Virus record (IMG/VR): IMGVR_UViG_3300020437_000005
Span: 18,121-82,120 of that record
DNA length: 64,000 nucleotides
From: a virus
Strand: one strand, 5' to 3'
Under the pieces are notes generated by a model, which worked only from the letters and a program-made list of their open reading frames with translations, was not told the DNA's origin and did no database searches. The translations under genes were made by a program, and so were the position numbers. This document shows positions 20,004 to 33,907 of the stretch, piece after piece (the first letter of the stretch is position 1; each line of letters opens with the position of its first letter).

Positions 20004-20032
20004 TTTACAAAACAGATCAACTCATGTATGAT
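20004..20032 (+). promoter_or_regulatory. sigma70-type promoter
   Basis: TTTACA-17 nt-TATGAT; preceded by AGTGTCA, which resembles the box at 17705. Confidence 0.7.
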
Positions 20033-20055
20033 TGGTTCATGAACAAAAATCAACG

Positions 20056-20601
20056 ATGAAACTCTCAACATTCATTCTTCCTGTTCTTCTTACCACAGCA
20101 TCATTTTCTGGAGTTGCTGCTCAAGCGGAGTATCAGGTATTTCATGAACAACACTGCTACGAGAATGTAGAGCGGTATGTTCCTGGATACTACAAAGCTA
20201 ATGGTCATTATGTGAGTGCAAAGGTAAAGAATAAGCGTCGTAAAGTTGGATGTGATCAAGCACAGACTGCTCCTGGAAGTGCTGCTCCCGCAAGTTATGG
20301 CGGTTCTTTTTATGGATCTTTTGGGAATGGTAATATTGCACATGGTTATCACCAACCACACTACCCTCAGCAGCAAACCAACTATTATCAACAACAATAT
20401 CCACAACAACAGCAACAACCGATTGTTATCAATCAACCACAGAATCAGTGCAATGGTAAACTCCTGCGCATGGGTATAGGTGCTCTCGGTGGTGGTTTTG
20501 CTGGTCGTTATGCTGTTGGTGGTAAAAAATCTAAAAATACTATTCTAGGCACAGTTCTGGGTGCTGGTGCAGGTAGTCTCATTGGTCGTGCTACTTGCTG
20601 A
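20056..20601 (+). CDS. Secreted/membrane protein with signal peptide, Gln-rich linker and C-terminal glycine zipper
   Basis: MKLSTFILPVLLTTASFSGVAAQA signal; GALGGGFAG...GTVLGAGAGSLIG zipper. Confidence 0.75.
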   Translation: MKLSTFILPVLLTTASFSGVAAQAEYQVFHEQHCYENVERYVPGYYKANGHYVSAKVKNKRRKVGCDQAQTAPGSAAPASYGGSFYGSFGNGNIAHGYHQPHYPQQQTNYYQQQYPQQQQQPIVINQPQNQCNGKLLRMGIGALGGGFAGRYAVGGKKSKNTILGTVLGAGAGSLIGRATC

Positions 20602-20861
20602 TGATGAAGTGTAGAACTTGTAAACATTGGACTCCGGGCAAATTTGGATTGGGATCTTGTACTGGAATCTTTCCAAGTTTTACTATGATCAGCAAACCAC
20701 CTAAAACTGATCATAAACGTGGAACAGTGCAGAAACAATCTAAGTTAATTCGTGTGCGTGATGGCATTGGTGGACTTGGTACTTATCAACCATGTCCGTC
20801 ATCTGTTGTCTCCACTTCATCTGACTGGGGTTGCAAAAATTGGACGAGGAAAAAAATATGA
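20601..20861 (+). CDS. Cys-rich hypothetical protein (possible Zn binder)
   Basis: CRTCKHW...GSC...GCKNW; TGATG coupling. Confidence 0.55.
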   Translation: MMKCRTCKHWTPGKFGLGSCTGIFPSFTMISKPPKTDHKRGTVQKQSKLIRVRDGIGGLGTYQPCPSSVVSTSSDWGCKNWTRKKI

Positions 20862-21046
20862 TAGACAGATCTTTTCTTGAAAAAATACCACATGAGTTAA
20901 AAGAGGCTCTTGCGGAAGATTGCGAGGATTATCTTCTACATAGAAATATACCATTGCACTCTCATTCCTATGACAACATCATCATCCAGGCAATCAAAGA
21001 GGGATATCAAGCTAACAAGTTTGATAGACCAATCCGTTTCGATTGA
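20858..21046 (+). CDS. Hypothetical protein
   Basis: GAGG RBS; ATGA overlap. Confidence 0.55.
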   Translation: MIDRSFLEKIPHELKEALAEDCEDYLLHRNIPLHSHSYDNIIIQAIKEGYQANKFDRPIRFD

Positions 21047-21124
21047 ATTTTGGTCACAAGTTGCTAAGGAATCTGAACAACTTGGAATTGATGTAGATTA
21101 TTTCCTTGTGGAGTTTTATACATC

Positions 21125-21304
21125 ATGACTGACCACGATAGATTGGTGAGCGCCATTCTTCGTGTGGATGAAATCGCTTCCCTGCTCCCAGATAATAACT
21201 GTCAACAGTTTTTATACTTTAAGTTATTATCAATCAAAACTGAACTTGAAAGTCAACTCAATCAGTTGACAAGAAAACAAAATCAATCTAAAATCAAGGA
21301 GTAA
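21125..21304 (+). CDS. 59-aa hypothetical protein (MTDHDRLVSAILRVDEI...)
   Basis: Read manually; GGAG upstream; below the ORF-track cutoff. Confidence 0.55.
   Translation: MTDHDRLVSAILRVDEIASLLPDNNCQQFLYFKLLSIKTELESQLNQLTRKQNQSKIKE
21266..21294 (+). promoter_or_regulatory. sigma70-type promoter
   Basis: TTGACA-17 nt-TAAAAT followed by AAGGAG RBS. Confidence 0.75.
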
Positions 21305-21314
21305 TTTACTTAGA

Positions 21315-21557
21315 ATGATGACTCAGAAGTTTTTCTACATCGTGAATCACTTTGTCCCTTTTCCAACATCAGAATACGGTGGTATTTGGAATGTGGTAGC
21401 AGAGAACGATGACGAATGTTTTGACTTAATTGTTGAGCGAGATGAAGGATTTAATGAAGGGCATTACAATCGTCTTCGTGAAAATATCATGAAGGCACCA
21501 ACATATGCACTGTCAGAAAATCTTGATTCTGAAATCGTAGAGGAGTTTACGACATGA
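21315..21557 (+). CDS. Hypothetical protein (VPFPTSEYGG motif)
   Basis: Promoter and RBS upstream. Confidence 0.7.
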   Translation: MMTQKFFYIVNHFVPFPTSEYGGIWNVVAENDDECFDLIVERDEGFNEGHYNRLRENIMKAPTYALSENLDSEIVEEFTT

Positions 21558-21868
21558 TTGGCAAACTTGATCCTGAAGAAAATGTAATGGATTTTGATCT
21601 GATTACTACAAATCGAAGAGCAAAAGCTATTATTAGAAACATAACAGAAAAACTTACAAAGCAAATTGCAGAGTTAAATTGGGAGTGCTATGATGACGTT
21701 GTTGTTGAGGTTGGGGGTCGCTCTGTTAGTGGTATTGATGTGGGCGAAGATTACAATCCCAAGTGGTCATCACCCAAAGGAACCATCAAGAACAATAAAG
21801 ACGCATTTATCGTAATCAAAAATAGAACTAGAACTCCATTTACACCATCAAAACCAAATGAAACCTGA
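21554..21868 (+). CDS. Hypothetical protein
   Basis: GAGGAG RBS; ATGA overlap. Confidence 0.65.
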   Translation: MIGKLDPEENVMDFDLITTNRRAKAIIRNITEKLTKQIAELNWECYDDVVVEVGGRSVSGIDVGEDYNPKWSSPKGTIKNNKDAFIVIKNRTRTPFTPSKPNET

Positions 21869-22091
21869 TGCAACCATCTCTTGGGATCAACATCTCAAAA
21901 GAGGAAACGTGTGGAGATGTGAATTAGAACTTTCCATGCAAGACACACCAGGAGATGAACCGTACATATACACTGTGGAGGTTTATGTAGTGTCACCCAC
22001 ACAAGCACTTGCACAGTATATTGTGACTACAATGTATCCAGAATTTGAATCCTTCTTGATCGATGATGAACCTTGTCGAACTACCCCATGA
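21858..22091 (+). CDS. Hypothetical protein
   Basis: Tiles with neighbours. Confidence 0.6.
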   Translation: MKPDATISWDQHLKRGNVWRCELELSMQDTPGDEPYIYTVEVYVVSPTQALAQYIVTTMYPEFESFLIDDEPCRTTP

Positions 22092-22386
22092 TTTCCCCCA
22101 TCAACCCCCAAAAGGATATAGTTATGAAGCAACCAATTTCAAAACGAATGTGGTTGCTATTTGGTTACGGGATCATCGCAAGTATTCTTACACTTCTGAT
22201 GATGTTAGGACTATTTGGGGATTCGTCAAGACAAAACGAGGAAGGAAGGGAAGCATTACGACGACTTATCATGCCCCCATCAACTCAAATAAAGTAGGAG
22301 ATGTGGTAGACATTAACAATACTCGTAACTACACTGCGATGCAACTCAATCTCAATCCGTTAGAAAGTGTTATCTACAATGTATAA
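22063..22386 (+). CDS. Hypothetical protein (ELPHDFPHQPPKGYSY...YTAMQLNLNPLE)
   Basis: Tiles with neighbours; normal phage amino-acid composition. Confidence 0.65.
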   Translation: MMNLVELPHDFPHQPPKGYSYEATNFKTNVVAIWLRDHRKYSYTSDDVRTIWGFVKTKRGRKGSITTTYHAPINSNKVGDVVDINNTRNYTAMQLNLNPLESVIYNV

Positions 22387-22627
22387 ACCAGCCCTAGATG
22401 ATTACGTCATTTGGAAAGGAAACAATGTTGAAGGTTGGGTTTACTATATTGATAGTGATGATGAATATCTCACTATTGAGATAGCAGTCACAGATAAACT
22501 TCCACATCAACTTGATGCTGGAACATATCATAGAAAAAATCATGTATTAATTGTCTGCCAAGGTTATTATTGGCATGAGTTAGAATTCATCAAATCAAGA
22601 TCACACACCAAATCATTTGAGGACTAA
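22379..22627 (+). CDS. Hypothetical protein (SH3-like pattern P.LDDYV.W...EGWVY)
   Basis: ATG 22379 within ORF 22367..22627. Confidence 0.6.
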   Translation: MYKPALDDYVIWKGNNVEGWVYYIDSDDEYLTIEIAVTDKLPHQLDAGTYHRKNHVLIVCQGYYWHELEFIKSRSHTKSFED

Positions 22628-22629
22628 TT

Positions 22630-22857
22630 ATGTCACATCGTCGAGAGTCAAAACAGCAGCGTCGTGCTAATACTATGGAGAAACGTCGTAAGATGGATCA
22701 AGTAGCATCACAAATGATTCAAGAACGTATCGAACGTCGTCTTGCAATTATTGAGGACATCAAACAAAAGATTGCAATGATTGAAGAACAAGAATCTGCT
22801 CCAACAGTTGATGCTACCGAAGAAGAGGTTCCAGTAAGTGAAGTTGAGGTTGTATAA
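22630..22857 (+). CDS. Hypothetical protein, basic N-half and acidic C-half
   Basis: GAGG RBS. Confidence 0.6.
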   Translation: MSHRRESKQQRRANTMEKRRKMDQVASQMIQERIERRLAIIEDIKQKIAMIEEQESAPTVDATEEEVPVSEVEVV

Positions 22858-22869
22858 TCTGATTGAATA

Positions 22870-22903
22870 AAAGTTACTCACCTCCTGATTGTCTTATTAC
22901 TGT
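22870..22903 (+). repeat. Intergenic 34-bp element, copy 1
   Basis: AAAGTTACTCACCTCCTGATTGTCTTATTACTGT. Confidence 0.92.
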
Positions 22904-22916
22904 AATCACACATCAC

Positions 22917-23054
22917 ATGAATTCTTATCTGACCGAACAACAAGTTGAAGAACTGGTAAACTTTGACCACATTGAAAAAGATCTTGCTGATCTTATCGAA
23001 GATGAGGAAAAGTTTGACATCAAAGACTATCTCAACTCCAACATTGACTACTAA
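22917..23054 (+). CDS. 45-aa acidic mini-protein (MNSYLTEQQVEELV...)
   Basis: First ATG after element copy 1. Confidence 0.6.
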   Translation: MNSYLTEQQVEELVNFDHIEKDLADLIEDEEKFDIKDYLNSNIDY

Positions 23055-23055
23055 A

Positions 23056-23277
23056 ATGAATTTTCCTACCGAAACTGTCAACGTGTTACCACATCTGAAT
23101 GAACTGAAAGAAACTTGGCGTCGTCAAGACTTTCGATTCACAAAAGATCAACAACTTCAATATGATATGCTACTGCAAGCACGTCGTGAACGAGTTAGTT
23201 TCTTTTATGAAGCAGATCGTGTGTTCAAAGGTCCACGTATTGTAAAGGAGAAGGTTGAACAACAAGAAGAGGAGTGA
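23056..23277 (+). CDS. Hypothetical protein (MNFPTETVNVLPHL...)
   Basis: ATG 1 nt after the previous stop. Confidence 0.65.
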   Translation: MNFPTETVNVLPHLNELKETWRRQDFRFTKDQQLQYDMLLQARRERVSFFYEADRVFKGPRIVKEKVEQQEEE

Positions 23278-23283
23278 TATAAT
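23255..23283 (+). promoter_or_regulatory. sigma70-type promoter for the candidate ncRNA
   Basis: TTGAAC-17 nt-TATAAT with TGn extension. Confidence 0.65.
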
Positions 23284-23289
23284 ATAAAC

Positions 23290-23410
23290 ACCGGGGTTTC
23301 CACTACTCTGACCTAGAAGCAGAGACCATGAAGTGGTGTAAAAGAAGAACTTACGTTGATGCAACACCCACTCCAATCTCCTACTATTCTAAATAGTAGG
23401 AGATTTTTTT
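23290..23410 (+). ncRNA. Candidate ~120-nt structured small RNA
   Basis: Lies between a sigma70 promoter and a terminator; several nested pairings; only a 22-codon ORF inside. Confidence 0.45.
23375..23410 (+). terminator. Perfect 14-bp hairpin with T tract, containing a late promoter (CTAAATA 23389-23395)
   Basis: AATCTCCTACTATT-CTA-AATAGTAGGAGATT then TTTTT. Confidence 0.75.
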
Positions 23411-23419
23411 GTAGACAGA

Positions 23420-24067
23420 ATGAAGACGTTCGTGCAGTTTATGACTGAAGTATATGACAAGGATGTCATGGGTTCTTCACAAATTCGTAAAACTGGTGGC
23501 GAAACTATTGGTAAAGATCGTAAACAACCAGCATCAATGACTCGCAGAATGAAGGCAGTTGGCGGTGGTAAGATGGAACCTGTTAAATCACCAGCAAGAC
23601 GTAAAGATGCTGGACAACAGAAACCAAAATCACAAACACAACAACAACCAACAAAAGAAAGAGGCAGTGCCGAAGTTAAACAATCATATGCGGATAAGGT
23701 AAAGGCAGAGAGAAAGAAAGCAGCACAAGCAAGAGCGGCAGCGAGAAAGTCTGGTGGTGAGGTGAAGAAAGACACCACATCATCAAAAGAAAAAGAGTCT
23801 GCAGCAACAAAGTTATTGTCGAAGAAGTCAACCACAGTCAAGAAAGAACCATCGAGAACTAATCGTAAATGGAAACATGAGAGCGGTGGTGGTATGACAA
23901 GGAAGGAAAGAGATTCAGCAAGAAACAAAGAAAAGGGTGCTGCACTGAAAGCAAAGAAGGCAGAATTGATCAAGGGATTTACAGATACTCATGGAAGAGC
24001 ACCGAAGGGAGCAGAGAGAACTAGACTGCTGGGATTAGCACATAAGGCAGCAAAATCTGGATCATAA
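23420..24067 (+). CDS. Highly basic protein with T4 internal-protein-like capsid targeting N-terminus
   Basis: MKTFVQFMTE resembles the T4 IPII/IPIII CTS MKTYQEFIAE; K/R-rich; late promoter upstream. Confidence 0.7.
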   Translation: MKTFVQFMTEVYDKDVMGSSQIRKTGGETIGKDRKQPASMTRRMKAVGGGKMEPVKSPARRKDAGQQKPKSQTQQQPTKERGSAEVKQSYADKVKAERKKAAQARAAARKSGGEVKKDTTSSKEKESAATKLLSKKSTTVKKEPSRTNRKWKHESGGGMTRKERDSARNKEKGAALKAKKAELIKGFTDTHGRAPKGAERTRLLGLAHKAAKSGS

Positions 24068-24100
24068 AAGTTACTCACCTCTTGATCGTCTTAGTTGTAC
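24067..24100 (+). repeat. Intergenic element, copy 2
   Basis: AAAGTTACTCACCTCTTGATCGTCTTAGTTGTAC; overlaps the last base of the upstream stop. Confidence 0.92.
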
Positions 24101-24118
24101 GAACATCCTGAGAGGGTC

Positions 24119-24147
24119 TTGTAAGGCGCTCTAAGGTGTGTTATACT
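24119..24147 (+). promoter_or_regulatory. sigma70-type promoter upstream of the helicase
   Basis: TTGTAA-17 nt-TATACT with TGn extension. Confidence 0.6.
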
Positions 24148-24173
24148 GTCCACAGGTATTCATCCCCTATTTC

Positions 24174-25367
24174 GTGACTGTTACCCTTCGACCGCATCAG
24201 CAACGTGTTCTGGACCGTCTTGCAGCATATGATAAGGGTCAAGTCATTGTCCCCACAGGTGGTGGTAAAACCATCTGCATGATTCAGGATACTATCAATC
24301 AACAGAACAACAGTCAGTCTGGTATTACCACTGTTGTTGTTGCTCCTCGTATTCTTCTTGCTGAACAACTGTGCAGTGAGTTTATGGAACTTGTTGATGG
24401 TTCTTACACTCACATCATGCACGTTCATAGTGGCGAGACACATCACTTCAGTACAACTAATCCAGAAAAGATTGCACTGTTTGCCAACTGTGCTCGTACT
24501 GCTGGTGAGAACCTGATTATCTTCACCACATATAATTCTCTTGATCGTATTCGTCAGGCAGATATTGAAGTCAACGACATATACTTTGACGAGGCACACA
24601 ACAGTGTCAAGCGTAACTTCTTCCCTGCAACTGAACACTTCAGCAATGAATCTGATCGTTGTTACTTCTTCACTGCGACACCAAAGCACAGTCTGACTGT
24701 ATCTAAACCTGGCATGAATGATGGTTCTGTCTATGGTCAGGTGCTGGTCAATGTTCCTGCTCCTGAGTTGGTTGAGGGTGGATACATTCTTCCTCCCAAA
24801 GTTGTAGTCAAGCAGTTGCCTATGATCAAAGGTCGTAAGGTCGTATTTGCTGATGACTGTGACAATCTATTGGAGACGATTGATGACAATAATATCAGCA
24901 AGACTCTGATCTGTGCTCGTACAACTCAACAGATCATCAACCTTATCTCTCAGTCACAGTTCTGTACTGAACTCGCTCAACGCGGTTATTCTTGGATGAC
25001 AATTACATCCAAGACTGGTGCAATCGTTGATGGTGAGAAGGTTGACCGTGAAAAGTTCTTTGATACACTGAACTCTTGGGGTCGTGATCCTGATAAGAAG
25101 TTTGTCTGCATCCATCATAGTATCCTGTCTGAGGGTATCAATGTCAATGGGTTGGAGGCAGTTGTGTTTATGCGCAACATGGACTACATTGGTATTAGTC
25201 AGTCAATCGGTCGTGTGATACGTCTGGGAGGCGATCAGAAGACGTTTGGACTGGTTTGTGTACCAACTTACGATGCTGTTGGTATTTCCACCGCTCGCAA
25301 GGTTCAGGCAGTTGTTGATGTTGTGTTCAATCAAGGTCAACCTGCTATCTCTGAGATTCGCCGCTAA
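24174..25367 (+). CDS. Superfamily 2 DEAH helicase/ATPase (ResIII-like)
   Basis: Q-motif LRPHQ, Walker A PTGGGKT, DEAH, TAT, LSEGINV, QSIGRVIR. Probable GTG start at 24174, downstream of the promoter. Confidence 0.88.
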   Translation: MTVTLRPHQQRVLDRLAAYDKGQVIVPTGGGKTICMIQDTINQQNNSQSGITTVVVAPRILLAEQLCSEFMELVDGSYTHIMHVHSGETHHFSTTNPEKIALFANCARTAGENLIIFTTYNSLDRIRQADIEVNDIYFDEAHNSVKRNFFPATEHFSNESDRCYFFTATPKHSLTVSKPGMNDGSVYGQVLVNVPAPELVEGGYILPPKVVVKQLPMIKGRKVVFADDCDNLLETIDDNNISKTLICARTTQQIINLISQSQFCTELAQRGYSWMTITSKTGAIVDGEKVDREKFFDTLNSWGRDPDKKFVCIHHSILSEGINVNGLEAVVFMRNMDYIGISQSIGRVIRLGGDQKTFGLVCVPTYDAVGISTARKVQAVVDVVFNQGQPAISEIRR

Positions 25368-25369
25368 TT

Positions 25370-25403
25370 AAAGTTACTCACCTCTTGATTGTATCAATAG
25401 TGT
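25370..25403 (+). repeat. Intergenic element, copy 3
   Basis: AAAGTTACTCACCTCTTGATTGTATCAATAGTGT. Confidence 0.92.
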
Positions 25404-25433
25404 GAGGCACACATCTCACAAAGTTTTTTTTTT
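25401..25433 (+). terminator. Possible attenuator: hairpin and T10 immediately before ATG 25439
   Basis: TGTGAG-GCACACAT-CTCACA-AAG-T10. Confidence 0.45.
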
Positions 25434-25438
25434 CCTTT

Positions 25439-26044
25439 ATGTCTAAATCAATCATCACAATGCAAGGTGCGATTGATCGCATGAATAAGATCAAAGCATC
25501 AAGTTCAAAAAAGATTGAAGTGTATGCAAAGCGTTGCTACATTGATTTCATGAATCCTGAGATTATCAGTTGGTGGAACGATGAGAGCAAAGACACAAAT
25601 GTTGGTCGCGCTATCACTCGTCCTTTCTATGATCTGGTTCACTCCTGTTCTATTCCAACTGGACTGATTACAGAGTCTGCATTTAAGTCTGAAAAGAAAA
25701 CCAAAGATCACTGCTTCCGCCCACAATTTGTCTATCGGTTTATGTTAGACAATCACGAACAATTTGAAGACTTTTCTGTCTTTCGTGAGTGGTTTGTTAT
25801 GTGCTGTTCAACTATTCTCGTCACTCCAAACGAAAATGATCGTTTGAGTAGTGAAGGAACCAAGAATCATGGTGGCGAATATGTTATCATGAGTCCTACA
25901 GATAAACAGTATGTTCGTGCAAATCTTGACCTCTTCACTCATAGCAATGAGCGTAGTTGGGCAAAGCGTAGTCTGACTCCAGCATCGAATGTTATCAATG
26001 CTCCCAGCGCACTTCTGGAGTATGAAAAGGTCTTCATCTCTTGA
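25439..26044 (+). CDS. Hypothetical protein, possible HNH/His-Me finger nuclease
   Basis: TKDHCFRP ... ILVTPNENDRL resembles the (D/E)Hxx P...(L/V)TxxEN beta-beta-alpha-metal pattern. Confidence 0.6.
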   Translation: MSKSIITMQGAIDRMNKIKASSSKKIEVYAKRCYIDFMNPEIISWWNDESKDTNVGRAITRPFYDLVHSCSIPTGLITESAFKSEKKTKDHCFRPQFVYRFMLDNHEQFEDFSVFREWFVMCCSTILVTPNENDRLSSEGTKNHGGEYVIMSPTDKQYVRANLDLFTHSNERSWAKRSLTPASNVINAPSALLEYEKVFIS

Positions 26045-26049
26045 CTCTA

Positions 26050-26083
26050 AATGTTACTCACCTCTTAATCGTATTAGTAGTAT
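26050..26083 (+). repeat. Intergenic element, copy 4
   Basis: AATGTTACTCACCTCTTAATCGTATTAGTAGTAT; position 33 is the A of ATG 26082. Confidence 0.9.
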
Positions 26084-26981
26084 GAAGAACACTCATCTAC
26101 AACATCCAGAGGACGCCATTCTCACTGGTGATCTCTCTGTTCTCGATTGGTTCGCTGCACCAGACAGTCACATCAGCACGAAAATGGATGGTGCTCCTGC
26201 TATTGTCTGGGGCACTAATCCTGCAACTGGTAACAAGTTTGTGGGAACAAAATCTGTCTTCAACAAAGTCAAAATCAAAATCAATGAAACGCATACTGAC
26301 ATTGATCGGAATCATTCTGGGTCTGTTGCTGACATACTACACCATTGCCTTGATTACCTTCCTGATGTCGGTGGGATTATTCAAGGTGATTTTATTGGGT
26401 TTGGTGGTAGTGATACTTTTTGCCCCAATACGATTACTTACACGTTCCCTGAGGTAATTCGAGAGAACATCATCATTGCTCCTCACACATATTACACTGC
26501 TGATAAAGATCTGCGTGATGCTGTTGCTCATCCCTTAAAGTTCAGAATCACTGATACGATGTATTGTAAGATCGTGCAACCTGAGGTCAAGTTGCATCCC
26601 TACCGTGAGGATTTGTATGATATGAGTTTGTTTGCCAAGCAAATGTCCACACTATGTGAGTTTGTGGATGACAAGCAAGCAACAAAAATCAAAAAATCCA
26701 TCAACGACTGCATCCGTGATGGTTATGAGGTGGACGAGAATGAAATTGCACAAAAAAACGATTGTGACATCAATCTCATTCGATTGTGGAAGTTGGTTGC
26801 AACTATGAAGGACGATCTCTTCTGGTATATCACCGAAGACGATCTGATTGACTGTAAGATTGGTGATGAAGAGTCTATGCACGAAGGTTATGTTATCAGC
26901 AACCAATATGGTGTGTTCAAAGTTGTTGACCGACCTACATTTTCTCGTGCAAACTTCACCATTCAGAAAAGTTGGTCCTGA
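26082..26981 (+). CDS. DUF6267-like phage protein with KxDG motif (ligase/nucleotidyltransferase-like)
   Basis: MKNTHLQHPED...STKMDGAPAIVWG...QGDF...HEGYV...KVVDR.TFSRANF. Confidence 0.72.
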   Translation: MKNTHLQHPEDAILTGDLSVLDWFAAPDSHISTKMDGAPAIVWGTNPATGNKFVGTKSVFNKVKIKINETHTDIDRNHSGSVADILHHCLDYLPDVGGIIQGDFIGFGGSDTFCPNTITYTFPEVIRENIIIAPHTYYTADKDLRDAVAHPLKFRITDTMYCKIVQPEVKLHPYREDLYDMSLFAKQMSTLCEFVDDKQATKIKKSINDCIRDGYEVDENEIAQKNDCDINLIRLWKLVATMKDDLFWYITEDDLIDCKIGDEESMHEGYVISNQYGVFKVVDRPTFSRANFTIQKSWS

Positions 26982-26982
26982 G

Positions 26983-27016
26983 AAAGTTACTCACCTTTCG
27001 ATTGTACCAGTAGTGT
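26983..27016 (+). repeat. Intergenic element, copy 5
   Basis: AAAGTTACTCACCTTTCGATTGTACCAGTAGTGT. Confidence 0.92.
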
Positions 27017-27033
27017 AAGAACGGAGGAAACTG

Positions 27034-27366
27034 ATGCTATTTGTATCAGGAAAATCACAACACACAAAACTCACATTCAAGGTCTACGATTTCTTCCGTG
27101 AGTTGTATGATGTCAAGTCAGATGTTGAGGTGTTTCACACTGATCTGACTGATGACAATGCCTTCGGTTTTACCGAGGAGAATGGTGATGAACAATTCAT
27201 TCAGATTCACAATGATCTGAGTGAGAAAGATTTTACCATCACATTGCTGCACGAACTTGTGCATGTGATGCAGAACGAAAATGGTATCACTGATGATAAG
27301 ATACGAGAAGAAGAGGCATATATGTTTGAGGACATTCTTTACAATCAGTACCTGCAATCTGTCTGA
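27034..27366 (+). CDS. Small HExxH zinc metallopeptidase-like protein
   Basis: TLLHELVHVMQ ... REEEAY; GGAGG RBS. Confidence 0.75.
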   Translation: MLFVSGKSQHTKLTFKVYDFFRELYDVKSDVEVFHTDLTDDNAFGFTEENGDEQFIQIHNDLSEKDFTITLLHELVHVMQNENGITDDKIREEEAYMFEDILYNQYLQSV

Positions 27367-27370
27367 CCCC

Positions 27371-27404
27371 AAAGTTACTCACCTCTTGATCGTACCAGTA
27401 GTGT
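27371..27404 (+). repeat. Intergenic element, copy 6
   Basis: AAAGTTACTCACCTCTTGATCGTACCAGTAGTGT. Confidence 0.93.
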
Positions 27405-27417
27405 AAGCACTCAACCA

Positions 27418-27756
27418 ATGCAAGTTACTCAAACCAAACCCCAATTCCTGACCGAAGCACTCATCGAAGTGCTCAACAATCAGTGGAAAGTCGATGCGAT
27501 CGAATCCGGTCATTCTGTTTATACTCAACTTGAGTATGAAGTTGGTCGCAAGTACATCAAAGTTTGGTCATATCTTGTTAGTGATGGTGAGAAAATGAGA
27601 GGTCGTTCTTGCTGGATGTTCGTTGACAAGAACACTGGCGAATGTTACAAACCAGCATCATACAAAGCACCTGCTAAGTATGTCCGCTATCTGATCACTC
27701 AGTTAGCAGATAATCCTCACATTTGTGATGCCTATGGTTCGTTCTTGTATCTCTGA
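27418..27756 (+). CDS. Phage hypothetical protein (GRKYIKV...FVDKNTG..YKPASYKAPAK family)
   Basis: Recognisable phage early-protein motif. Confidence 0.75.
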   Translation: MQVTQTKPQFLTEALIEVLNNQWKVDAIESGHSVYTQLEYEVGRKYIKVWSYLVSDGEKMRGRSCWMFVDKNTGECYKPASYKAPAKYVRYLITQLADNPHICDAYGSFLYL

Positions 27757-27758
27757 TT

Positions 27759-28019
27759 ATGTTCTCTGACACCAATCGTCAACTCCGCAAACTTTCTATC
27801 TACAAACCCATGCAATTCCAAGTCACACAAATTGAGTTTGATTTCACTGACGATGTGTTTCCTGATGAAGCACTGCCAGTAGAAGAACAAGAACTTATTG
27901 TTGCAGAAACTTGTAATACTATCTGGGAGGCATGTGATGAGGATGATCTCATCGAGGAGATCACATCTGCATCAGGTTGGTGCATCAAATCCGTTGATTA
28001 TGTTCACGTTCTTAACTGA
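27759..28019 (+). CDS. Acidic hypothetical protein
   Basis: WEA.DEDDLIEEIT...GWCIKS; true start may be the internal ATG (MQFQVT). Confidence 0.6.
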   Translation: MFSDTNRQLRKLSIYKPMQFQVTQIEFDFTDDVFPDEALPVEEQELIVAETCNTIWEACDEDDLIEEITSASGWCIKSVDYVHVLN

Positions 28020-28024
28020 AACTC

Positions 28025-28192
28025 ATGATTACTTCCAAAGCACAAATGCTCCGCATTATGAAACAATGCGATGGAGCAGACACTCTCACTCGTGAACAAA
28101 AGTTTCAAGTTTTCTGCAATGTTTGCGATAACATGCTCAAATCTGGTAAAATGTCCAAAGCAACACACAAACGATTCACGGAGATCTGGTGA
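28025..28192 (+). CDS. 55-aa hypothetical protein (MITSKAQMLRIMKQC...)
   Basis: Read manually; TGATG-coupled to the next gene. Confidence 0.6.
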   Translation: MITSKAQMLRIMKQCDGADTLTREQKFQVFCNVCDNMLKSGKMSKATHKRFTEIW

Positions 28193-28401
28193 TGACTAAA
28201 GACGTTACAAACTCACCAAAAGATTGGGAGGATTTCTGGTACTCACCCGAGAAATATGGTTCTTGGGAGTATTACAACTCCGAGAGTGAGGGACGTGACG
28301 TTCCTGAGATTGATCCTGAAATCTTACGCTATGTCGATTATGTTTTGGGCAATTCTCCTTATCCACCATCATTTAAGAGAAACTCAAAACTCTCAGAATG
28401 A
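28192..28401 (+). CDS. Hypothetical protein
   Basis: ORF track; coupled start. Confidence 0.55.
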   Translation: MTKDVTNSPKDWEDFWYSPEKYGSWEYYNSESEGRDVPEIDPEILRYVDYVLGNSPYPPSFKRNSKLSE

Positions 28402-28410
28402 CAGGTTTTC

Positions 28411-28444
28411 AAAGTTACTCACCTCTTGATTGTCCTATTAGTGT
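28411..28444 (+). repeat. Intergenic element, copy 7
   Basis: AAAGTTACTCACCTCTTGATTGTCCTATTAGTGT. Confidence 0.92.
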
Positions 28445-28476
28445 AAGCACCACACCAAACCAATTCTTTTCTCATC

Positions 28477-28683
28477 ATGACCAAGTTTCGTGAGTTTGCA
28501 ACAGAAGCAATGTATTTTTGTGCTTGTTTCGGTACACTCTCTCTTGTGACTTTGTTCTGCACAGTCAACATGAATACGAGTTCCTCTATCATGAATCCTG
28601 TTGATGTTGAAACTGTATCAAATCCTTCTGATACTTCACCTGCTCGTGTTGACTATCTGACCAACATTCAAGAGGGTAACTGA
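28477..28683 (+). CDS. Small membrane protein
   Basis: Hydrophobic AMYFCACFGTLSLVTLFCTV. Confidence 0.6.
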   Translation: MTKFREFATEAMYFCACFGTLSLVTLFCTVNMNTSSSIMNPVDVETVSNPSDTSPARVDYLTNIQEGN

Positions 28684-28860
28684 ATGAAACCCTATCCGCT
28701 TGGAATTGACAACCCCATTCTGATTAAGCAGGTGTGGGGTTCTACTGACTGGGCATTGTATTGGAGAAAAGATCACATTAAGATCGCCACATTTTCTAAT
28801 CAATTCACTGCCTACGACATGCGCCGTTCTATTCTTCGTGCTCTTGGTTACGATGCTTGA
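28684..28860 (+). CDS. 58-aa hypothetical protein (MKPYPLGIDNPILIKQVWGS...)
   Basis: Read manually; ATG directly after the previous stop. Confidence 0.6.
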   Translation: MKPYPLGIDNPILIKQVWGSTDWALYWRKDHIKIATFSNQFTAYDMRRSILRALGYDA

Positions 28861-29017
28861 TCTCATTCTTGCCTACGAATCTGGTGAACTTGACAATGAC
28901 CAGATTGTTGAATTGTTCCAACAGATCTATGACAACAAAGCATACCTTTGGTTGCAAGGTCATTACGATCGCACACTTGCTCATCTAATTGACTCCGGTC
29001 TCATTCACATTGATTGA
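28853..29017 (+). CDS. 54-aa hypothetical protein (MLDLILAYESGELD...WLQGHYDR)
   Basis: Read manually; 8-nt overlap with the previous gene. Confidence 0.6.
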   Translation: MLDLILAYESGELDNDQIVELFQQIYDNKAYLWLQGHYDRTLAHLIDSGLIHID

Positions 29018-29026
29018 CACAAACTC

Positions 29027-29215
29027 ATGAACTACGATGTTGACGAACGCCAAACCTCCATTGATAACATGGAGGACACATTATTTGAAAAGATGAAGTT
29101 TGCCTTTATTCGTGAGAATGTGGGTGATGCTGAAGCGATCAAGAATGAGTGGGTTGTTGATGAAGACGACGAACCGGATAATTTTCTCTTTGTTCCCAAT
29201 CTTACACTAGACTGA
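29027..29215 (+). CDS. Acidic hypothetical protein
   Basis: ORF track; TGATG coupling to the next gene. Confidence 0.6.
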   Translation: MNYDVDERQTSIDNMEDTLFEKMKFAFIRENVGDAEAIKNEWVVDEDDEPDNFLFVPNLTLD

Positions 29216-29409
29216 TGACACAACTCGACTTTGATCGTTCGATGATGGAACTTAAACTGCGTAAACAGACTCTACTGGATGAGATCGCGCAGATCAATGC
29301 TTCTATAGAGTTTCTTCAAGAACAGAAGAATAACATCGTAGGTGAACAACAGGAGAGGACAGAAGAGATCTATAATGATATACTGGGAGATGAGTATTTC
29401 TCAGAATAA
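29215..29409 (+). CDS. Coiled-coil hypothetical protein
   Basis: ORF track; heptad pattern. Confidence 0.6.
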   Translation: MTQLDFDRSMMELKLRKQTLLDEIAQINASIEFLQEQKNNIVGEQQERTEEIYNDILGDEYFSE

Positions 29410-29472
29410 TAACATAACTCTCCGAGAGTTTCCGAGATTCGAGCGACGCGAGCGCCGATTTTTTTCATTCTC

Positions 29473-29506
29473 AAAGTTACTCACCTTCTGATTGTACCAG
29501 TTGTAT
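29473..29506 (+). repeat. Intergenic element, copy 8
   Basis: AAAGTTACTCACCTTCTGATTGTACCAGTTGTAT; position 33 is the A of ATG 29505. Confidence 0.92.
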
Positions 29507-29732
29507 GAGAATCACTTCCACCATGGTCCCTGTCCCTGACGACATCCGCGCCGCTGCCGTTCTTGAACAGATCAAAGATTGCAAGGTTGAAGATCCCTTT
29601 GGCAACCGATACAGCATTGTCGATGTTAAGTGCTTCAACGGTAAAGTGCGATCCATTGGTCTCAAAGGCGCTGATGGTGTTGTTATGTACGCCTCGAAGA
29701 ATGTCTTTCTTGAAATGACATCTATTGCTTAA
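29505..29732 (+). CDS. Hypothetical protein (possibly leaderless)
   Basis: ORF starts inside the element's 3' end. Confidence 0.6.
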   Translation: MRITSTMVPVPDDIRAAAVLEQIKDCKVEDPFGNRYSIVDVKCFNGKVRSIGLKGADGVVMYASKNVFLEMTSIA

Positions 29733-29735
29733 TTC

Positions 29736-29918
29736 ATGAAACTTCGTAAAATTCACATGAAAACGATTCTGATTGTGTTAGTTGGTGTGCTGGTTTGGAC
29801 GAACAACGATGCACGCACATTCACTGCAAAAGCACTCTATCGTGCTGCTGAGTTTGTATCACCCGAACCTGAATCTCGTTCGATCGGTGAAACAATCGAT
29901 GAAATCTTCTCTCGTTAA
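29736..29918 (+). CDS. Small membrane protein
   Basis: MKTILIVLVGVLVW hydrophobic segment. Confidence 0.6.
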   Translation: MKLRKIHMKTILIVLVGVLVWTNNDARTFTAKALYRAAEFVSPEPESRSIGETIDEIFSR

Positions 29919-29926
29919 TTGACATC

Positions 29927-30127
29927 ATGCAAGAAACTAAGTTCAATCTCTATGGCGAACATATCCGTCCTAATGGTCATCAACAGTGGGACATTCTGAG
30001 TTACATTGCTGAGACAAGAGAGGATGCGATTGCTGCATGTAGGAAGAACAATCCTTACTTTCACATTATCACAATTCAGGTAGATGATACATCACCTGAA
30101 GTCGTGAGGTTGCAATCTCTGATTTGA
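29927..30127 (+). CDS. Hypothetical protein
   Basis: ORF track; stop overlaps element copy 9. Confidence 0.6.
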   Translation: MQETKFNLYGEHIRPNGHQQWDILSYIAETREDAIAACRKNNPYFHIITIQVDDTSPEVVRLQSLI

Positions 30128-30160
30128 AAGTTACTCACCTCCTGATCGTACCAGTAGTGT
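30127..30160 (+). repeat. Intergenic element, copy 9
   Basis: AAAGTTACTCACCTCCTGATCGTACCAGTAGTGT. Confidence 0.93.
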
Positions 30161-30172
30161 AAGCACTCAACC

Positions 30173-30334
30173 ATGACAGACCAAACCTACTCCGAAATCC
30201 TCAAAGTTTGGAACGACGAAACTCCTGACGATTTTGCAATCTTCAGTGAACTCTACTACCAAATGTTCGGTGGAGAGTTTGACATTCCTTACATCACACA
30301 GTCTACCACTTCTGCATTTTTCCCCTACGATTGA
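30173..30334 (+). CDS. 53-aa hypothetical protein (MTDQTYSEILKVWNDETPDDF...)
   Basis: Read manually; first ATG after copy 9. Confidence 0.6.
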   Translation: MTDQTYSEILKVWNDETPDDFAIFSELYYQMFGGEFDIPYITQSTTSAFFPYD

Positions 30335-30352
30335 TCAACAGGAGTTAGTTTG

Positions 30353-30526
30353 ATGACTTATTCTGAACTTTTGGTGCAACTGCTTCAACTTAATACAGAA
30401 CAGTTGAGGCAAGACGTTACAGTCTATGATTCTGACACTGATGAACACTATCCTATGAAGGAGTTTGTGTATGCAACTGATGCACAAAATGTTCTAGACA
30501 CTGACCACCCTATTCTTTCTTTCTGA
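30353..30526 (+). CDS. 57-aa hypothetical protein (MTYSELLVQLLQLNTEQLRQDVTVYD...)
   Basis: AGGAG RBS; read manually. Confidence 0.65.
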   Translation: MTYSELLVQLLQLNTEQLRQDVTVYDSDTDEHYPMKEFVYATDAQNVLDTDHPILSF

Positions 30527-30529
30527 ACC

Positions 30530-30940
30530 ATGTCTACCAACGCAAGAATCGCAATTCAACTGTCAGACAAACCCGGTTACTATGTCTCTGTTTATCATCA
30601 CTGGGATGGTTATCCGCAGTGGTTGGGTAAGACTCTCGGACAACACTTTGACTCTCGTAAGTTAGCATCCGATCTGATTGATGGTGGAGACATGTCATGC
30701 TGCTGGTCAGATACAGACTGGAACATGAAGAAACTCCCAACCAATCGTCCTCTCTATTATTCTGAGCGTGGTGAGGATTGCCCTCCTCAACTTGCAACCA
30801 CTACAGACGATTTGTTCGAGCAATGTGAGAACTGTGGTGCAGAGTATGTTTACATCTACACTCCAGATCACGGTTGGGTATCACACAGTGTCTATGATTA
30901 TACTTCTGGCAAATTTCAATCAGCAACTCTCTCTAACTAA
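30530..30940 (+). CDS. Phage hypothetical protein with YxHxDGYP motif
   Basis: MSTNARI...VYHHWDGYP...AEYVYIY. Confidence 0.75.
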   Translation: MSTNARIAIQLSDKPGYYVSVYHHWDGYPQWLGKTLGQHFDSRKLASDLIDGGDMSCCWSDTDWNMKKLPTNRPLYYSERGEDCPPQLATTTDDLFEQCENCGAEYVYIYTPDHGWVSHSVYDYTSGKFQSATLSN

Positions 30941-30949
30941 CATTCAATC

Positions 30950-31171
30950 ATGACAACTTCCACTTTTCTCACTAACATGAACGACGAGCAACTTGACAAA
31001 CTCAAAGACAACTATGCCTACCTGATTGTGGATGGTATGGATATGGATTCTCTCATTACTTTCGCTGTCGAAACTGTTGCTCACAATTTAGAAACCTGGA
31101 CAGAGGAAGAAATCAAGGAAGAGATTCTCGATCATTATGGTGAAGAAACTCTGAATGATCTTCTATCCTAA
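30950..31171 (+). CDS. Acidic hypothetical protein
   Basis: ORF track; IVDGMDMDSL. Confidence 0.65.
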   Translation: MTTSTFLTNMNDEQLDKLKDNYAYLIVDGMDMDSLITFAVETVAHNLETWTEEEIKEEILDHYGEETLNDLLS

Positions 31172-31273
31172 AATCACACAAATTTAAGTATAATCACTCA
31201 CAAAAATGATTCAAAATCAATTAAAAATGGTTTAATAAATATACTTTCGTTTTCTATCTCTCTTGTTACTTGA

Positions 31274-31315
31274 CAGTTACTCCGTGGTTGTTTGACAGTA
31301 TCTGCGGAGTAATTG
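31274..31315 (+). other. 14-bp inverted repeat/hairpin in a non-coding gap
   Basis: CAGTTACTCCGTGG ... CTGCGGAGTAATTG; all three mismatches are G-U on the + strand. Confidence 0.7.
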
Positions 31316-31354
31316 CACTGATAAATGTACGAACTTATAGTGATCTTGGACCTC

Positions 31355-31383
31355 ATTCTATCACCACTCCGCGAAAATGTCAA
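31355..31383 (-). promoter_or_regulatory. Antisense sigma70-type promoter
   Basis: Minus strand TTGACA-17 nt-TAGAAT with TGn extension. Confidence 0.7.
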
Positions 31384-31456
31384 GTCCCCCGCAATCAGAA
31401 ATCCCACACAAAACACTTCGTAATATAAGGAGGACTCATAAATAGTCTGCGGTAGA

Positions 31457-31485
31457 TTGACAGATTCTCTCTGACGATCTATAAT
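31457..31485 (+). promoter_or_regulatory. Perfect sigma70 promoter
   Basis: TTGACA-17 nt-TATAAT. Confidence 0.85.
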
Positions 31486-31514
31486 AACAAAGTAACACTC
31501 CCACCCTTCCAACC

Positions 31515-31688
31515 ATGCCTGCTATCTATCACCAAGCACAGAAGAGTAAGTATCGCATCACCCTGGAAATCGAAGCAATGAGTGACTTCGACCCGCATAA
31601 TATCAACTGGGATCGATTGTTTAAGTTGGAAGGTTCGGAGAATTGTGATGCTTATATAGAGGACCTGAGTACACCTGACCGTTGGTAA
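31515..31688 (+). CDS. 57-aa hypothetical protein (MPAIYHQAQKSKYRITLEIE...EDLSTPDRW)
   Basis: Read manually; directly downstream of the promoter. Confidence 0.65.
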   Translation: MPAIYHQAQKSKYRITLEIEAMSDFDPHNINWDRLFKLEGSENCDAYIEDLSTPDRW

Positions 31689-31701
31689 TCGCAGTCGCTT
31701 T

Positions 31702-31735
31702 AAAGTTACTCACCTCTTGATCGTACCAGTGGTGT
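31702..31735 (+). repeat. Intergenic element, copy 10
   Basis: AAAGTTACTCACCTCTTGATCGTACCAGTGGTGT. Confidence 0.93.
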
Positions 31736-31760
31736 AAGAAACCAACAGAAACAAACAAAC

Positions 31761-31934
31761 ATGCTCACCCGATCTGATCTTCTCACCGTTCGCGACTACT
31801 TCTCCGGAGATGAGTGGGACCTGATTGATGCTGCTCTCAGTGAGTATCAGGACCATTTTGACACTGATGAAGATGCAATCGTGTTCAACACATTGCAATC
31901 GAAACTCGCAGGATTGTTCCGTATTGTAGACTGA
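31761..31934 (+). CDS. 57-aa hypothetical protein (MLTRSDLLTVRDYFSGDEWDLIDAALSEYQDH...)
   Basis: Read manually; first ATG after copy 10. Confidence 0.65.
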   Translation: MLTRSDLLTVRDYFSGDEWDLIDAALSEYQDHFDTDEDAIVFNTLQSKLAGLFRIVD

Positions 31935-31976
31935 GAATCGGTACTCTAAGTAACACTCAACTATCACTCTCACATC

Positions 31977-32291
31977 ATGCGTAAGATCGAAACTCTGATG
32001 AACAAAGCAATCGCGGACGGCAAAGATTGGTCGCTCGATAACACTAGAGTCGAGTCCTACGGTGACATCGCCCACGTCTATCTTTACGGCAAACTTATCT
32101 CAAGAATCGGCGAAGGTTGGATACAATTATTCGACGGAGGTAAGCAATCGAAGACCACCAAATCTCGCCTGAATGCTGTACTCGAAGCGAATGGATTGCC
32201 GGGTGAACGTGTCTTTCAACGCAATCGTCAGTGGTTCGTTAACTACAACGGACATCCAATTCCTTTCTTCTCAGGTATGCGTATGAATTGA
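31977..32291 (+). CDS. Phage hypothetical protein (MRKIE...TTKSRLNA family)
   Basis: Recognisable phage early-protein motif. Confidence 0.75.
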   Translation: MRKIETLMNKAIADGKDWSLDNTRVESYGDIAHVYLYGKLISRIGEGWIQLFDGGKQSKTTKSRLNAVLEANGLPGERVFQRNRQWFVNYNGHPIPFFSGMRMN

Positions 32292-32375
32292 TAAAGTATC
32301 GGTAACCTGGGCACGTTAGCGTTGCATCGGTAAGTCCCAGGTCTTCATTCTTCACTAACACTTTTCTCTTTTATT

Positions 32376-32510
32376 ATGTCTCGCTCAACTGCACTCGGTC
32401 TTCTCAACATCGGCGCTGACGGTAATGAAATCCTTGCCATTCTCGATGTTATCGCTGAGATCGAATCCGAGAAGGTTATCGACGAAATCGCAGATCTCCT
32501 GTTTAATTGA
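32376..32510 (+). CDS. 44-aa acidic mini-protein (MSRSTALGLLNIGADGNEILAILDVI...)
   Basis: Read manually. Confidence 0.55.
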   Translation: MSRSTALGLLNIGADGNEILAILDVIAEIESEKVIDEIADLLFN

Positions 32511-32514
32511 TACG

Positions 32515-32703
32515 ATGATCACCAACGTCGCTACAGCGTCCCGTCTAGATCTTGAGATCGCTGACACTCGGGGACAGATCAAGTACACACGTTTGAAACC
32601 ACAATCACCTCGTCGTTCGTTGTTAGTCTTGACACAAACTAAGGGTCTCCGAACTAACACGAATCGAGGTAAGATTAACGACAAACACGCTACATCGATC
32701 TGA
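32515..32703 (+). CDS. 62-aa basic hypothetical protein (MITNVATASRLDLEIADTRGQIKYTRL...)
   Basis: Internal ATG of ORF 32425..32703 removes the overlap with 32376..32510. Confidence 0.55.
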   Translation: MITNVATASRLDLEIADTRGQIKYTRLKPQSPRRSLLVLTQTKGLRTNTNRGKINDKHATSI

Positions 32704-32719
32704 CACGATTGCAGAGGGG

Positions 32720-32748
32720 TTGACAACACTCAATCCCTCTGATATACT
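32720..32748 (+). promoter_or_regulatory. sigma70 promoter embedded in an inverted repeat
   Basis: TTGACA-17 nt-TATACT; AGAGGGGTTGA/TCAATCCCTCT arms at 32713-32740. Confidence 0.7.
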
Positions 32749-32896
32749 GACAGTAGGTATCGCAGTGTTGGGCGTTTATCGTCGTTCGTTGATGCGTCGC
32801 GTGTATATAAAAAAACCCAACTTCCCTAACCTACAACGGACCGAATTCGAGAGGTATATATAATTCAACTTTTGTTTTGATGCGGAGAAAAAAATT

Positions 32897-33082
32897 TTGC
32901 CCAGAAAAATTTCGCCCCAAAAGGTTTATCACATATACGCAAAGAATGAGTGTTTATACAAGAATCTAACAGAAGGACAATTTAAGAAGACATGGATAAC
33001 CCTCAATGGTATGGTCGGAATCATGAAAACCGATTATGTGGTTGAGGATTTGTCATATGAGGAGATAATAGTATCTGATTGA
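32897..33082 (+). CDS. Hypothetical protein (YHIYAKNECLY...LSYEE)
   Basis: ORF track; start uncertain (TTG). Confidence 0.5.
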   Translation: MPRKISPQKVYHIYAKNECLYKNLTEGQFKKTWITLNGMVGIMKTDYVVEDLSYEEIIVSD

Positions 33083-33107
33083 CAGTGCATATATAAACTG
33101 TTATAAT
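33079..33107 (+). promoter_or_regulatory. Perfect sigma70 promoter
   Basis: TTGACA-17 nt-TATAAT with TGn extension. Confidence 0.85.
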
Positions 33108-33130
33108 TGATATGAAGTTAATTCAAACTT

Positions 33131-33907
33131 ATGGCTAAAGGATTTACTGTTAAGGCAAATGCCCCCACAGCGCCTAAAGAGGAAGAGTGGGACTATGACG
33201 CGATTAAAGAGCGTATGAAAGGGAAGACGATTGTATTCTGTCTTCCAGGAAGAGGATGTTCGTATACCTTTCTAAAAAACTTTGTACAGATGTGTTTTGA
33301 TCTGGTACAGAATGGAATGGCTATTCAGATCAGTCAAGACTATTCATCCATGGTGAACTTCGCACGTTGTAAGTGTTTAGGTGCAAATGTTCTCCGTGGT
33401 CCTAATCAAGCACCATGGGACGGTAAACTGCAGTATGACTATCAACTGTGGATTGACAGTGATATTGTCTTTAACTCTCAGAAGTTCTGGCAACTTTGTG
33501 ATCTTGCAGTTCCTGCTGAAGGTGAAGAACGTGATATCACCGCTGGTTGGTATTGCACAGAAGACGGTCAAACATCTTCTGTTGCACACTGGTTGGACGA
33601 AGAAGACTTCCGTGGTAATGGTGGTGTCATGAATCATGAAACACTGGAAACCATGGCAAATCGTCAGAAACCATTCACTGTAGATTACACAGGCTTTGGA
33701 TGGGTCATGATTAAGAATGGCGTATTTGAGAATGACAAAATGGTTTATCCATGGTTTGCGCCTAAAATGCAGGTATTTGAAAGTGGTGAAGTTCAAGACA
33801 TGTGCGGCGAGGATGTCTCATTCTGTCTAGATGCAAAAGAAGCAGGTTATGAAATCTGGTGCGACCCACGCATTCGTGTCGGTCATGAAAAGACTCGTGT
33901 AATTTGA
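33131..33907 (+). CDS. GT-A fold (GT2-like) glycosyltransferase-like protein
   Basis: FARCK...YDYQLWIDSDIVF (DxD)...TGFGWVMIK...GEDVSFC...VGHEK. Confidence 0.75.
   Translation: MAKGFTVKANAPTAPKEEEWDYDAIKERMKGKTIVFCLPGRGCSYTFLKNFVQMCFDLVQNGMAIQISQDYSSMVNFARCKCLGANVLRGPNQAPWDGKLQYDYQLWIDSDIVFNSQKFWQLCDLAVPAEGEERDITAGWYCTEDGQTSSVAHWLDEEDFRGNGGVMNHETLETMANRQKPFTVDYTGFGWVMIKNGVFENDKMVYPWFAPKMQVFESGEVQDMCGEDVSFCLDAKEAGYEIWCDPRIRVGHEKTRVI

Follow-up and report, generated by a model that had tools for sequence, protein, structure and literature searches.

A single module devoid of the tetranucleotide family RGCY in the genome of a marine T4-like cyanophage

Background

The first-step-transfer DNA of phage T5 and the leading end of T7 DNA are depleted of restriction sites. 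A survey of the avoidance of restriction sites (short palindromes) in phage genomes has been published by Rusinov et al. (2018; PMC6286503). In its classical form, avoidance concerns a word which is symmetric under reverse complementation and corresponds to a known specificity, and which is removed by synonymous spelling beyond the expectation from composition and codon usage. Here we describe a 64,000-nt stretch of viral DNA (IMG/VR record IMGVR_UViG_3300020437_000005, positions 18,121 to 82,120 of a contig of 82,120 bp; hereafter the window) which shares these properties in that the tetranucleotides AGCT, GGCT, AGCC and GGCC, jointly written as RGCY, are completely missing from one 10.7-kb zone. 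RGCY is the recognition sequence of CviJI (PMC3681635).

Whereas classical avoidance is genome-wide, one cut being fatal, the purge in the window is absolute within the 10.7-kb module (23.7 kb in the cultured relative S-SCSM2R) and weak or absent elsewhere. Like the leading DNA of T5 and T7, the zone is a delimited, site-free segment with small genes and its own promoters, which makes up about 6–10% of the genome if genome sizes are taken as about 170–245 kb. Unlike the leading DNA of T5 and T7, it belongs to a contractile-tailed T4-like phage whose genome ends are supposedly permuted; it is located between two structural blocks and includes a fibre gene in S-SCSM2R. A purge confined to one module may represent a variant form of restriction-site avoidance, whose operation would bear some resemblance to that of the site-poor DNA at the leading ends of T5 and T7. 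Ocr of T7 is expressed ahead of full DNA entry (PMC12707154). Restriction-modification systems are reported to be uncommon in marine picocyanobacteria (PMC6708340), and a literature search did not retrieve any report on RGCY, or on the avoidance of restriction sites, in marine cyanophages.

Results and discussion

Extent and statistics of the RGCY-free zone

A pattern search yielded 166 RGCY matches in the window and none between positions 22394 and 33132 (10,739 bp; a feature without strand assignment). The zone is bounded by AGCC at 22390–22393 on the left and by GGCT at 33133–33136 on the right, the latter falling within the ATGGCT with which the next gene begins. The initial annotation, made by reading the sequence, had reported exactly this interval, with AGCC at 22390 followed directly by GGCT at 33133; its estimate of about 13 sites in the preceding 4.7 kb corresponds to exactly 13 matches at 17926–22390, and the return of RGCY in fibre and baseplate genes is likewise borne out by the match list. 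AGCT, GGCT, AGCC and GGCC are the only tetramers absent from the zone, for which maximal-order Markov models predict 17.5, 9.1, 6.9 and 3.6 copies, respectively. The avoided word is exactly the CviJI-type RGCY, as had been proposed, and the set is closed under reverse complementation.

From base composition, 116 RGCY are expected in the zone. Markov-1 simulations (n = 200) averaged 67 sites and never fell below 48, and Markov-2 simulations (n = 200) averaged 37 and never fell below 20. Codon-preserving shuffling of the called zone open reading frames (ORFs), a control suggested in the initial annotation, predicted 52 sites; the single one observed is the AGCC at 22390 outside the zone, leaving none within it. 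The shuffled set was the output of a greedy caller and contains a few doubtful minus-strand ORFs. Extrapolating the site density of the remaining contig to the zone leads to an expectation of 34.6 sites (Poisson P of about 1e-15). When 230 sites, the number present in the full contig of 82,120 bp, were placed at random in 20,000 trials, the longest gap was always ≤5,556 bp. The second-longest real gap in the contig measures 1,665 bp, so an equally long RGCY-free stretch, which had been named as an observation that would speak against the zone, does not occur elsewhere in it. Chance as the cause of the zone is excluded.

The purge does not extend to related words. RGCR (111 copies), YGCY (113) and YGCR (113) occur in the zone at the frequencies expected from base composition (112–120), the count for YGCY agreeing with the early remark that TGCT and CGCT are common there. 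None of the other palindromic tetramers is purged from the zone, as exemplified by CATG (43 observed versus 51 expected from Markov models) and CCGG (7 versus 7). Outside the zone, the contig is barely depleted of RGCY by Markov standards, with 33 GGCC versus 34 expected and 98 AGCT versus 139 expected. These values, and the 635 sites located outside the gap of S-SCSM2R, differ from what genome-wide avoidance would produce.

A chimeric assembly was considered and rejected, as contigs from the metagenome of another study (X2) span both boundaries, and the structure is found again in independent IMG/VR contigs.

Recurrence of the purge in related phages

The closest database relatives of the window are Synechococcus T4-like cyanophages, and the contig derives from a marine, Kyanoviridae-like T4-like cyanomyovirus. 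Using the UvsW-like helicase gene of the zone as query, eighty IMG/VR loci were obtained, among which the ratio of observed to expected RGCY ranges from 0.0 to 0.6. Long RGCY-free stretches cover the same module in the loci L007 (10,077 bp), L025 (9,683 bp), L059 (11,354 bp) and L060 (9,128 bp), and several short relative contigs contain no RGCY whatsoever. In L007, RGCY resumes at the glycosyltransferase-like gene that also follows the zone of the window; in L025 it resumes some 0.6 kb ahead of that gene. Both loci share the contrast and the right boundary at about 75% identity.

Module and flanks were compared in nine loci bearing both the helicase and the glycosyltransferase-like gene. The observed/expected ratio of the module and those of its two flanks are 0.01 versus 0.36/0.35 in the window, 0.01 versus 0.15/0.30 in S-SCSM2R, 0 versus 0.13/0.15 in L007, and 0.08 versus 0.20/0.17 in SynMITS9220M01. 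The module of L025 is poorer than its right flank, and L059 is poor all along.

The cultured phage S-SCSM2R, which infects Synechococcus WH7803, has a complete genome of 244,186 bp, deposited as a circular record. Its 635 RGCY (observed/expected 0.26) leave a single gap of 23,676 bp at positions 30447–54123 of that genome, the next longest being 4,340 bp. The gap is syntenic with the zone of the window and contains the helicase gene, the gene of a DUF6267 protein, and small ORFs. The purge concerns precisely the four RGCY words, is specific to the module, and recurs in diverged relatives at the syntenic location.

A different pattern was noted for CCGG in S-SCSM2R, which is absent from the 23.7-kb zone (Markov expectation 16.5) and occurs about 14 times in the other 220 kb; this scarcity is a genome-wide purge beside the zone-limited purge of RGCY. 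The contig of the window does not show avoidance of CCGG.

Spelling and maintenance of the purged zone

The helicase gene, with no RGCY in the window and 0–5 in relatives, illustrates how the word is avoided. Taken together, the relatives have RGCY at 30 different positions of this gene; at 23 of the 30, which involve all three frames, the window encodes the same residues in another spelling. Avoidance is by synonymous, or codon-context, spelling.

Between the window and its closest relative, L003, identity amounts to 90.7% in the zone and 91.5% outside. In the left flank, the two have eight sites in common, and the window has three more (19341, 21010 and 22390) within 4.7 kb. In the zone, L003 has 12 aligned RGCY where the window has none, eight of which lie in the box of a promoter-like repeat described below. 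Of the 8,733 aligned zone columns, 814 differ; after polarisation with outgroups, 154 changes fall on the window branch and 211 on that of L003. A neutral simulation generated about 16 new RGCY when half of the divergence was placed on the window branch, and about 8 with a quarter. With the split indicated by the outgroups, about 13–16 new sites are expected in the zone on the window branch, compared to none observed, and not one of 300 runs ended with zero. In the glycosyltransferase-like gene, RGCY positions are mostly unshared among nine lineages, indicating that flank sites turn over freely, and the flanks in the contig retain more than 200 RGCY that turn over. Avoidance in the zone is still maintained, by purifying selection.

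Decay of methylated RGCY by deamination was tried as an explanation for the loss of sites and rejected. RGTY (187 versus 192 expected) and RACY (190 versus 200 expected) are not in excess in the zone, and the replacements between L003 and the window are varied (CGAA, CACT, CGCT, GGCA) rather than C-to-T changes.

Among the best 28 of 793 population variants in the zone, taken from four metagenomes, none leaves an RGCY, while about one RGCY-creating variant would be expected. The change 30790 A>G, which would create AGCT, is always coupled with 30791 C>T in the four metagenomes, converting the codon AAC to AGT. The population variants have too little power to bear on maintenance.

Gene content of the module

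Tail-fibre genes are followed by the helicase gene and many small ORFs, a glycosyltransferase-like gene, and baseplate wedge genes, an order also found in the annotated isolate Sf-CH5. The zone is a variable small-gene module, with the tail-fibre genes on one side and the glycosyltransferase/baseplate block on the other. All credible genes of the zone are on the plus strand, as are those listed here with their coordinates, and most lack a family assignment. A small ORF of 86 aa without family match (22367–22627) straddles the left boundary, the last RGCY being located in its first codons. It is followed by a Lys/Arg-rich ORF of 215 aa (23420–24067; no Pfam or PHROG match), the UvsW-like superfamily-2 helicase gene (24138–25367; ResIII, DEAD and Helicase_C domains, PHROG 16), an ORF of 201 aa that belongs to no known family (25439–26044; no Pfam or PHROG match), and the gene of the DUF6267 protein (26082–26981; PHROG 455), which is conserved among relatives. 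Further genes code for a small protein with an IrrE/Peptidase_M78-like metallopeptidase domain, identified by the Pfam/PHROG scan (27034–27366), a DUF7717 protein (27418–27756; PHROG 3274), and a protein of the Kyanoviridae Gp96 family (31977–32291; PF23790). The glycosyltransferase-like gene (33131–33907; PHROG 1574) is the first to the right of the zone and contains three RGCY.

The 201-aa protein shares about 60% identity with its L003 counterpart, compared to 98% for the adjoining helicase and DUF6267 proteins; among the compared loci its best match is that of SynMITS9220M01 (64%). Invariant motifs of the family are DHC...PQ and EN. Searches of a protein atlas with the 201-aa protein returned unnamed viral clusters only, and neither this protein nor the DUF6267 protein has relatives among solved structures, by sequence or profile. 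In its N-terminal part, the DUF6267 protein contains an invariant K-x-D-G (K34, D36 and G37; alignment A2), which resembles motif I of ligase-type nucleotidyltransferases. When 17 ORFs of the window and three of S-SCSM2R were scanned, Pfam and PHROG did not yield nuclease, C5-methylase or anti-restriction families. Rfam and tRNA scans gave one sub-threshold match due to chance, and no tRNA.

To the left of the zone, RGCY at 5185, 5278, 5371, 5464 and 5557 follow each other at an exact spacing of 93 nt, which indicates a 31-codon tandem repeat within a giant ORF of 5,562 aa. The G+C content of adjacent blocks of the contig varies between 0.30 and 0.49 (giant ORF 0.45–0.49, zone 0.41–0.43, baseplate genes 0.30–0.36). 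The baseplate genes of S-SCSM2R show a similar drop, and the variation between blocks appears to be gene-specific.

Promoter-like repeats and sigma-70-type signals

An array of ten promoter-like repeats of about 35–56 nt extends over positions 22861–31748 on the plus strand, each copy being located just upstream of a gene start (core starts at 22873, 24070, 25373, 26053, 26986, 27374, 28414, 29476, 30130 and 31705). The coincidence of the zone with this cassette array, pointed out in the initial annotation, holds for ten of ten copies, as the 82-kb contig does not contain any outside the zone; the left end of the zone is about 470 bp to the left of the first copy. S-SCSM2R has a repeat of its own, whose five copies are confined to its zone or to the right edge of the zone. 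PeSL-type promoter cassettes, reportedly described for T4-type phages by Arbiol and colleagues in 2010, are likewise repeated promoter-like elements that head blocks of small genes in a variable region, the blocks varying between relatives. The likeness concerns the repeat array and not the RGCY purge.

The repeat includes a variable box, which reads CACCT in ten of ten copies in the window and CAGCT in nine of nine copies of L003 (positions 8773–20233 of that locus). CAGCT is also found in L002 (two copies), L004 (five) and L005 (two), and CACCT in every other repeat-bearing lineage. Such a concerted change between genomes that are 91% identical suggests that the repeat co-evolves with a DNA-binding factor or that its copies undergo gene conversion.

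Apart from the ten repeats, the zone includes a perfect sigma-70-type consensus, TTGACA-17-TATAAT with TG, at 33079–33107 on the plus strand, just upstream of the gene where RGCY resumes. A non-coding gap of about 340 bp in the zone contains divergent sigma-70-type promoters at 31457–31485 on the plus strand (12 of 12 consensus positions) and at 31383–31355 on the minus strand (11 of 12).

Possible causes of the purge

If one cut anywhere in the genome were lethal, purging one module while more than 200 sites remain would be useless, and selection could not maintain it. This leaves two possibilities: a site is more or less costly according to where it lies, or a purged gene pool keeps supplying the module. 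Position-dependent selection is favoured because zone and flanks are equally diverged between the window and L003, and because the contrast recurs at about 75% identity. The symmetry of the avoided set under reverse complementation suggests that the recogniser acts on double-stranded DNA. We tentatively propose that an RGCY-specific DNA nuclease harms a module which is needed or exposed first. The agent would be a nuclease of the hosts or of competing phages, and an RGCY site would be far costlier within the module than elsewhere, as the module would have to be read, or would be exposed, before the phage neutralises the attack or repairs breaks elsewhere. Staged entry, early accessibility, or breaks that are otherwise repairable but block early transcription are conceivable routes.

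The initial annotation had suggested that the segment is especially vulnerable before protection is established. The location-specific and actively maintained purge fits this idea, to which the reading proposed here comes close; the tail-fibre gene in the zone of S-SCSM2R and the small-ORF clusters outside the zones which are not purged, however, speak against a simple rule that early genes are purged.

Several observations weigh against a nuclease that acts on a module needed or exposed first. The circular permutation supposed for T4-like genomes speaks against a fixed end that enters first. An RGCY nuclease was not identified among the scanned ORFs of the zone. Three of the nine loci compared (Sf-CH5, L044 and S-CAM9) do not show any contrast between module and flanks, and in the closest lineage (L002–L005) sites in the module are evidently tolerated, because every repeat copy there carries AGCT. 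The stretch of small ORFs to the left of the zone (17.7–22.4 kb) has near-consensus sigma-70-like promoters yet retains 13 RGCY. The gap of S-SCSM2R also spans a gene of 6.6 kb whose annotation is that of a late tail-fibre gene (long tail fibre distal subunit), small-ORF clusters elsewhere in that genome are not purged, and several shorter RGCY-free patches of 3.0–4.3 kb, which look more like recombination mosaics, occur inside single giant structural genes.

A rather less probable explanation is mosaic ancestry, or gene flow without location-dependent selection, in which the zone would be the largest block derived from a pool of fully RGCY-purged cyanomyoviruses, and the flanks would stem from unpurged lineages. 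Mosaicism does occur, as shown by the patches in S-SCSM2R, by a giant fibre-like gene of 1,793 aa in the window (12293–17674), and by the 201-aa gene, which was swapped between the window and L003. The fibre-like gene is, unlike its neighbours, not depleted of RGCY (35 observed versus 42 in codon shuffles), consistent with recent import. Blocks have also been gained and lost in the module among relatives, and on a quick tree of the helicase the near-zero lineages are scattered among richer ones with observed/expected ratios of 0.2–0.6. However, L003 differs from the window as much in the zone as in the flanks, so that such a mosaic would be older than the split of the two. Since then, the zone has gained none of the sites expected from neutral change, while the left flank kept its sites and includes three that are missing in L003. 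The recurrence of the contrast and the right boundary in L007 and L025 also speaks against such an ancestry.

It is unlikely that avoidance acts at the level of RNA, through an endoribonuclease of the host or the phage which cuts RGCY in mRNA and which only the transcripts of the module must survive. Selection on individual transcripts would account equally well for a purge limited to a co-oriented block with its own promoter-like repeat, and the plus-strand orientation of all credible zone genes agrees with it. No RNase is known to have RGCY specificity, and the avoided set, which consists of AGCT, GGCC and the pair AGCC/GGCT and so has the form of a symmetric site in double-stranded DNA, would be a coincidence for an RNA motif. 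The RGCY-free patches inside single genes of S-SCSM2R are not explicable per transcript either. Besides, RGCY matches a known restriction specificity, that of CviJI (PMC3681635).

Very unlikely is differential constraint, that is, a uniform weak selection under which fast-evolving small genes shed their sites, whereas highly expressed structural genes keep them due to codon or amino-acid preferences. The structural regions of S-SCSM2R are indeed the densest in RGCY (for example, an observed/expected ratio of 0.54 in the capsid region), and in S-SCSM1 15 of 18 sites are located in the structural half of the chunk examined. Nevertheless, nearly every RGCY could be avoided synonymously, and GCY is used freely after Y in the zone, as is evident from the YGCY count. 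Contrary to what differential constraint would predict, the small-ORF clusters elsewhere in S-SCSM2R and the stretch to the left of the zone in the window are not purged, and the 6.6-kb fibre gene of S-SCSM2R is.

Virus-encoded systems of the CviJI type exist. The zone of S-SCSM2R contains an overlapping pair of genes annotated as "endonuclease" and Dam methylase, and the annotation of this genome lists Dam-type and Mom-like enzymes and no C5 methylase. Across 87 helicase loci (25 purged, 20 unpurged, and 42 omitted as intermediate or too short), no ORF family showed a significant link to the purge (lowest Fisher P 0.027, uncorrected); as coverage differs between loci, this is a weak negative. 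In spite of the gene pair in S-SCSM2R, it is hardly credible that the phage avoids an RGCY nuclease or a restriction-modification pair of its own, encoded in or near the module as in chloroviruses, considering that its own genome retains hundreds of RGCY, that the methylase of S-SCSM2R is an N6-adenine enzyme (PF02086), that neither a nuclease family nor a C5-cytosine methylase was found in the scanned zone ORFs, and that none of the module ORF families was significantly linked to the purge. Two other candidates, primase recognition sites and a preference of the terminase for certain sequences when cutting, find no support in the present data.

Conclusions

Site avoidance of the usual kind reveals only that some host enzyme exists, whereas an absolute purge of one module, maintained in a genome with hundreds of sites elsewhere, indicates that the damage depends on the position of the site. 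Such position dependence is unexpected for a T4-like phage, and suggests that exposure of the genome is ordered, or that a nuclease makes breaks which are repairable everywhere but in the genes needed first. The pattern also flags a putative RGCY-specific activity in a very abundant virus-host system of the ocean, in which classical restriction is reportedly rare. Since it is present in the cultured phage S-SCSM2R, it is directly testable on Synechococcus WH7803. A more far-reaching, and improbable, extension is that DNA exposure or delivery is ordered in Kyanoviridae, the module being a region similar to first-step-transfer DNA that would have to survive a widespread RGCY nuclease of marine picocyanobacteria or rival cyanophages until functions encoded in it safeguard or repair the remaining DNA. 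If exposure were indeed ordered in this way, it would mean a staged vulnerability in a supposedly permuted T4-like myovirus.

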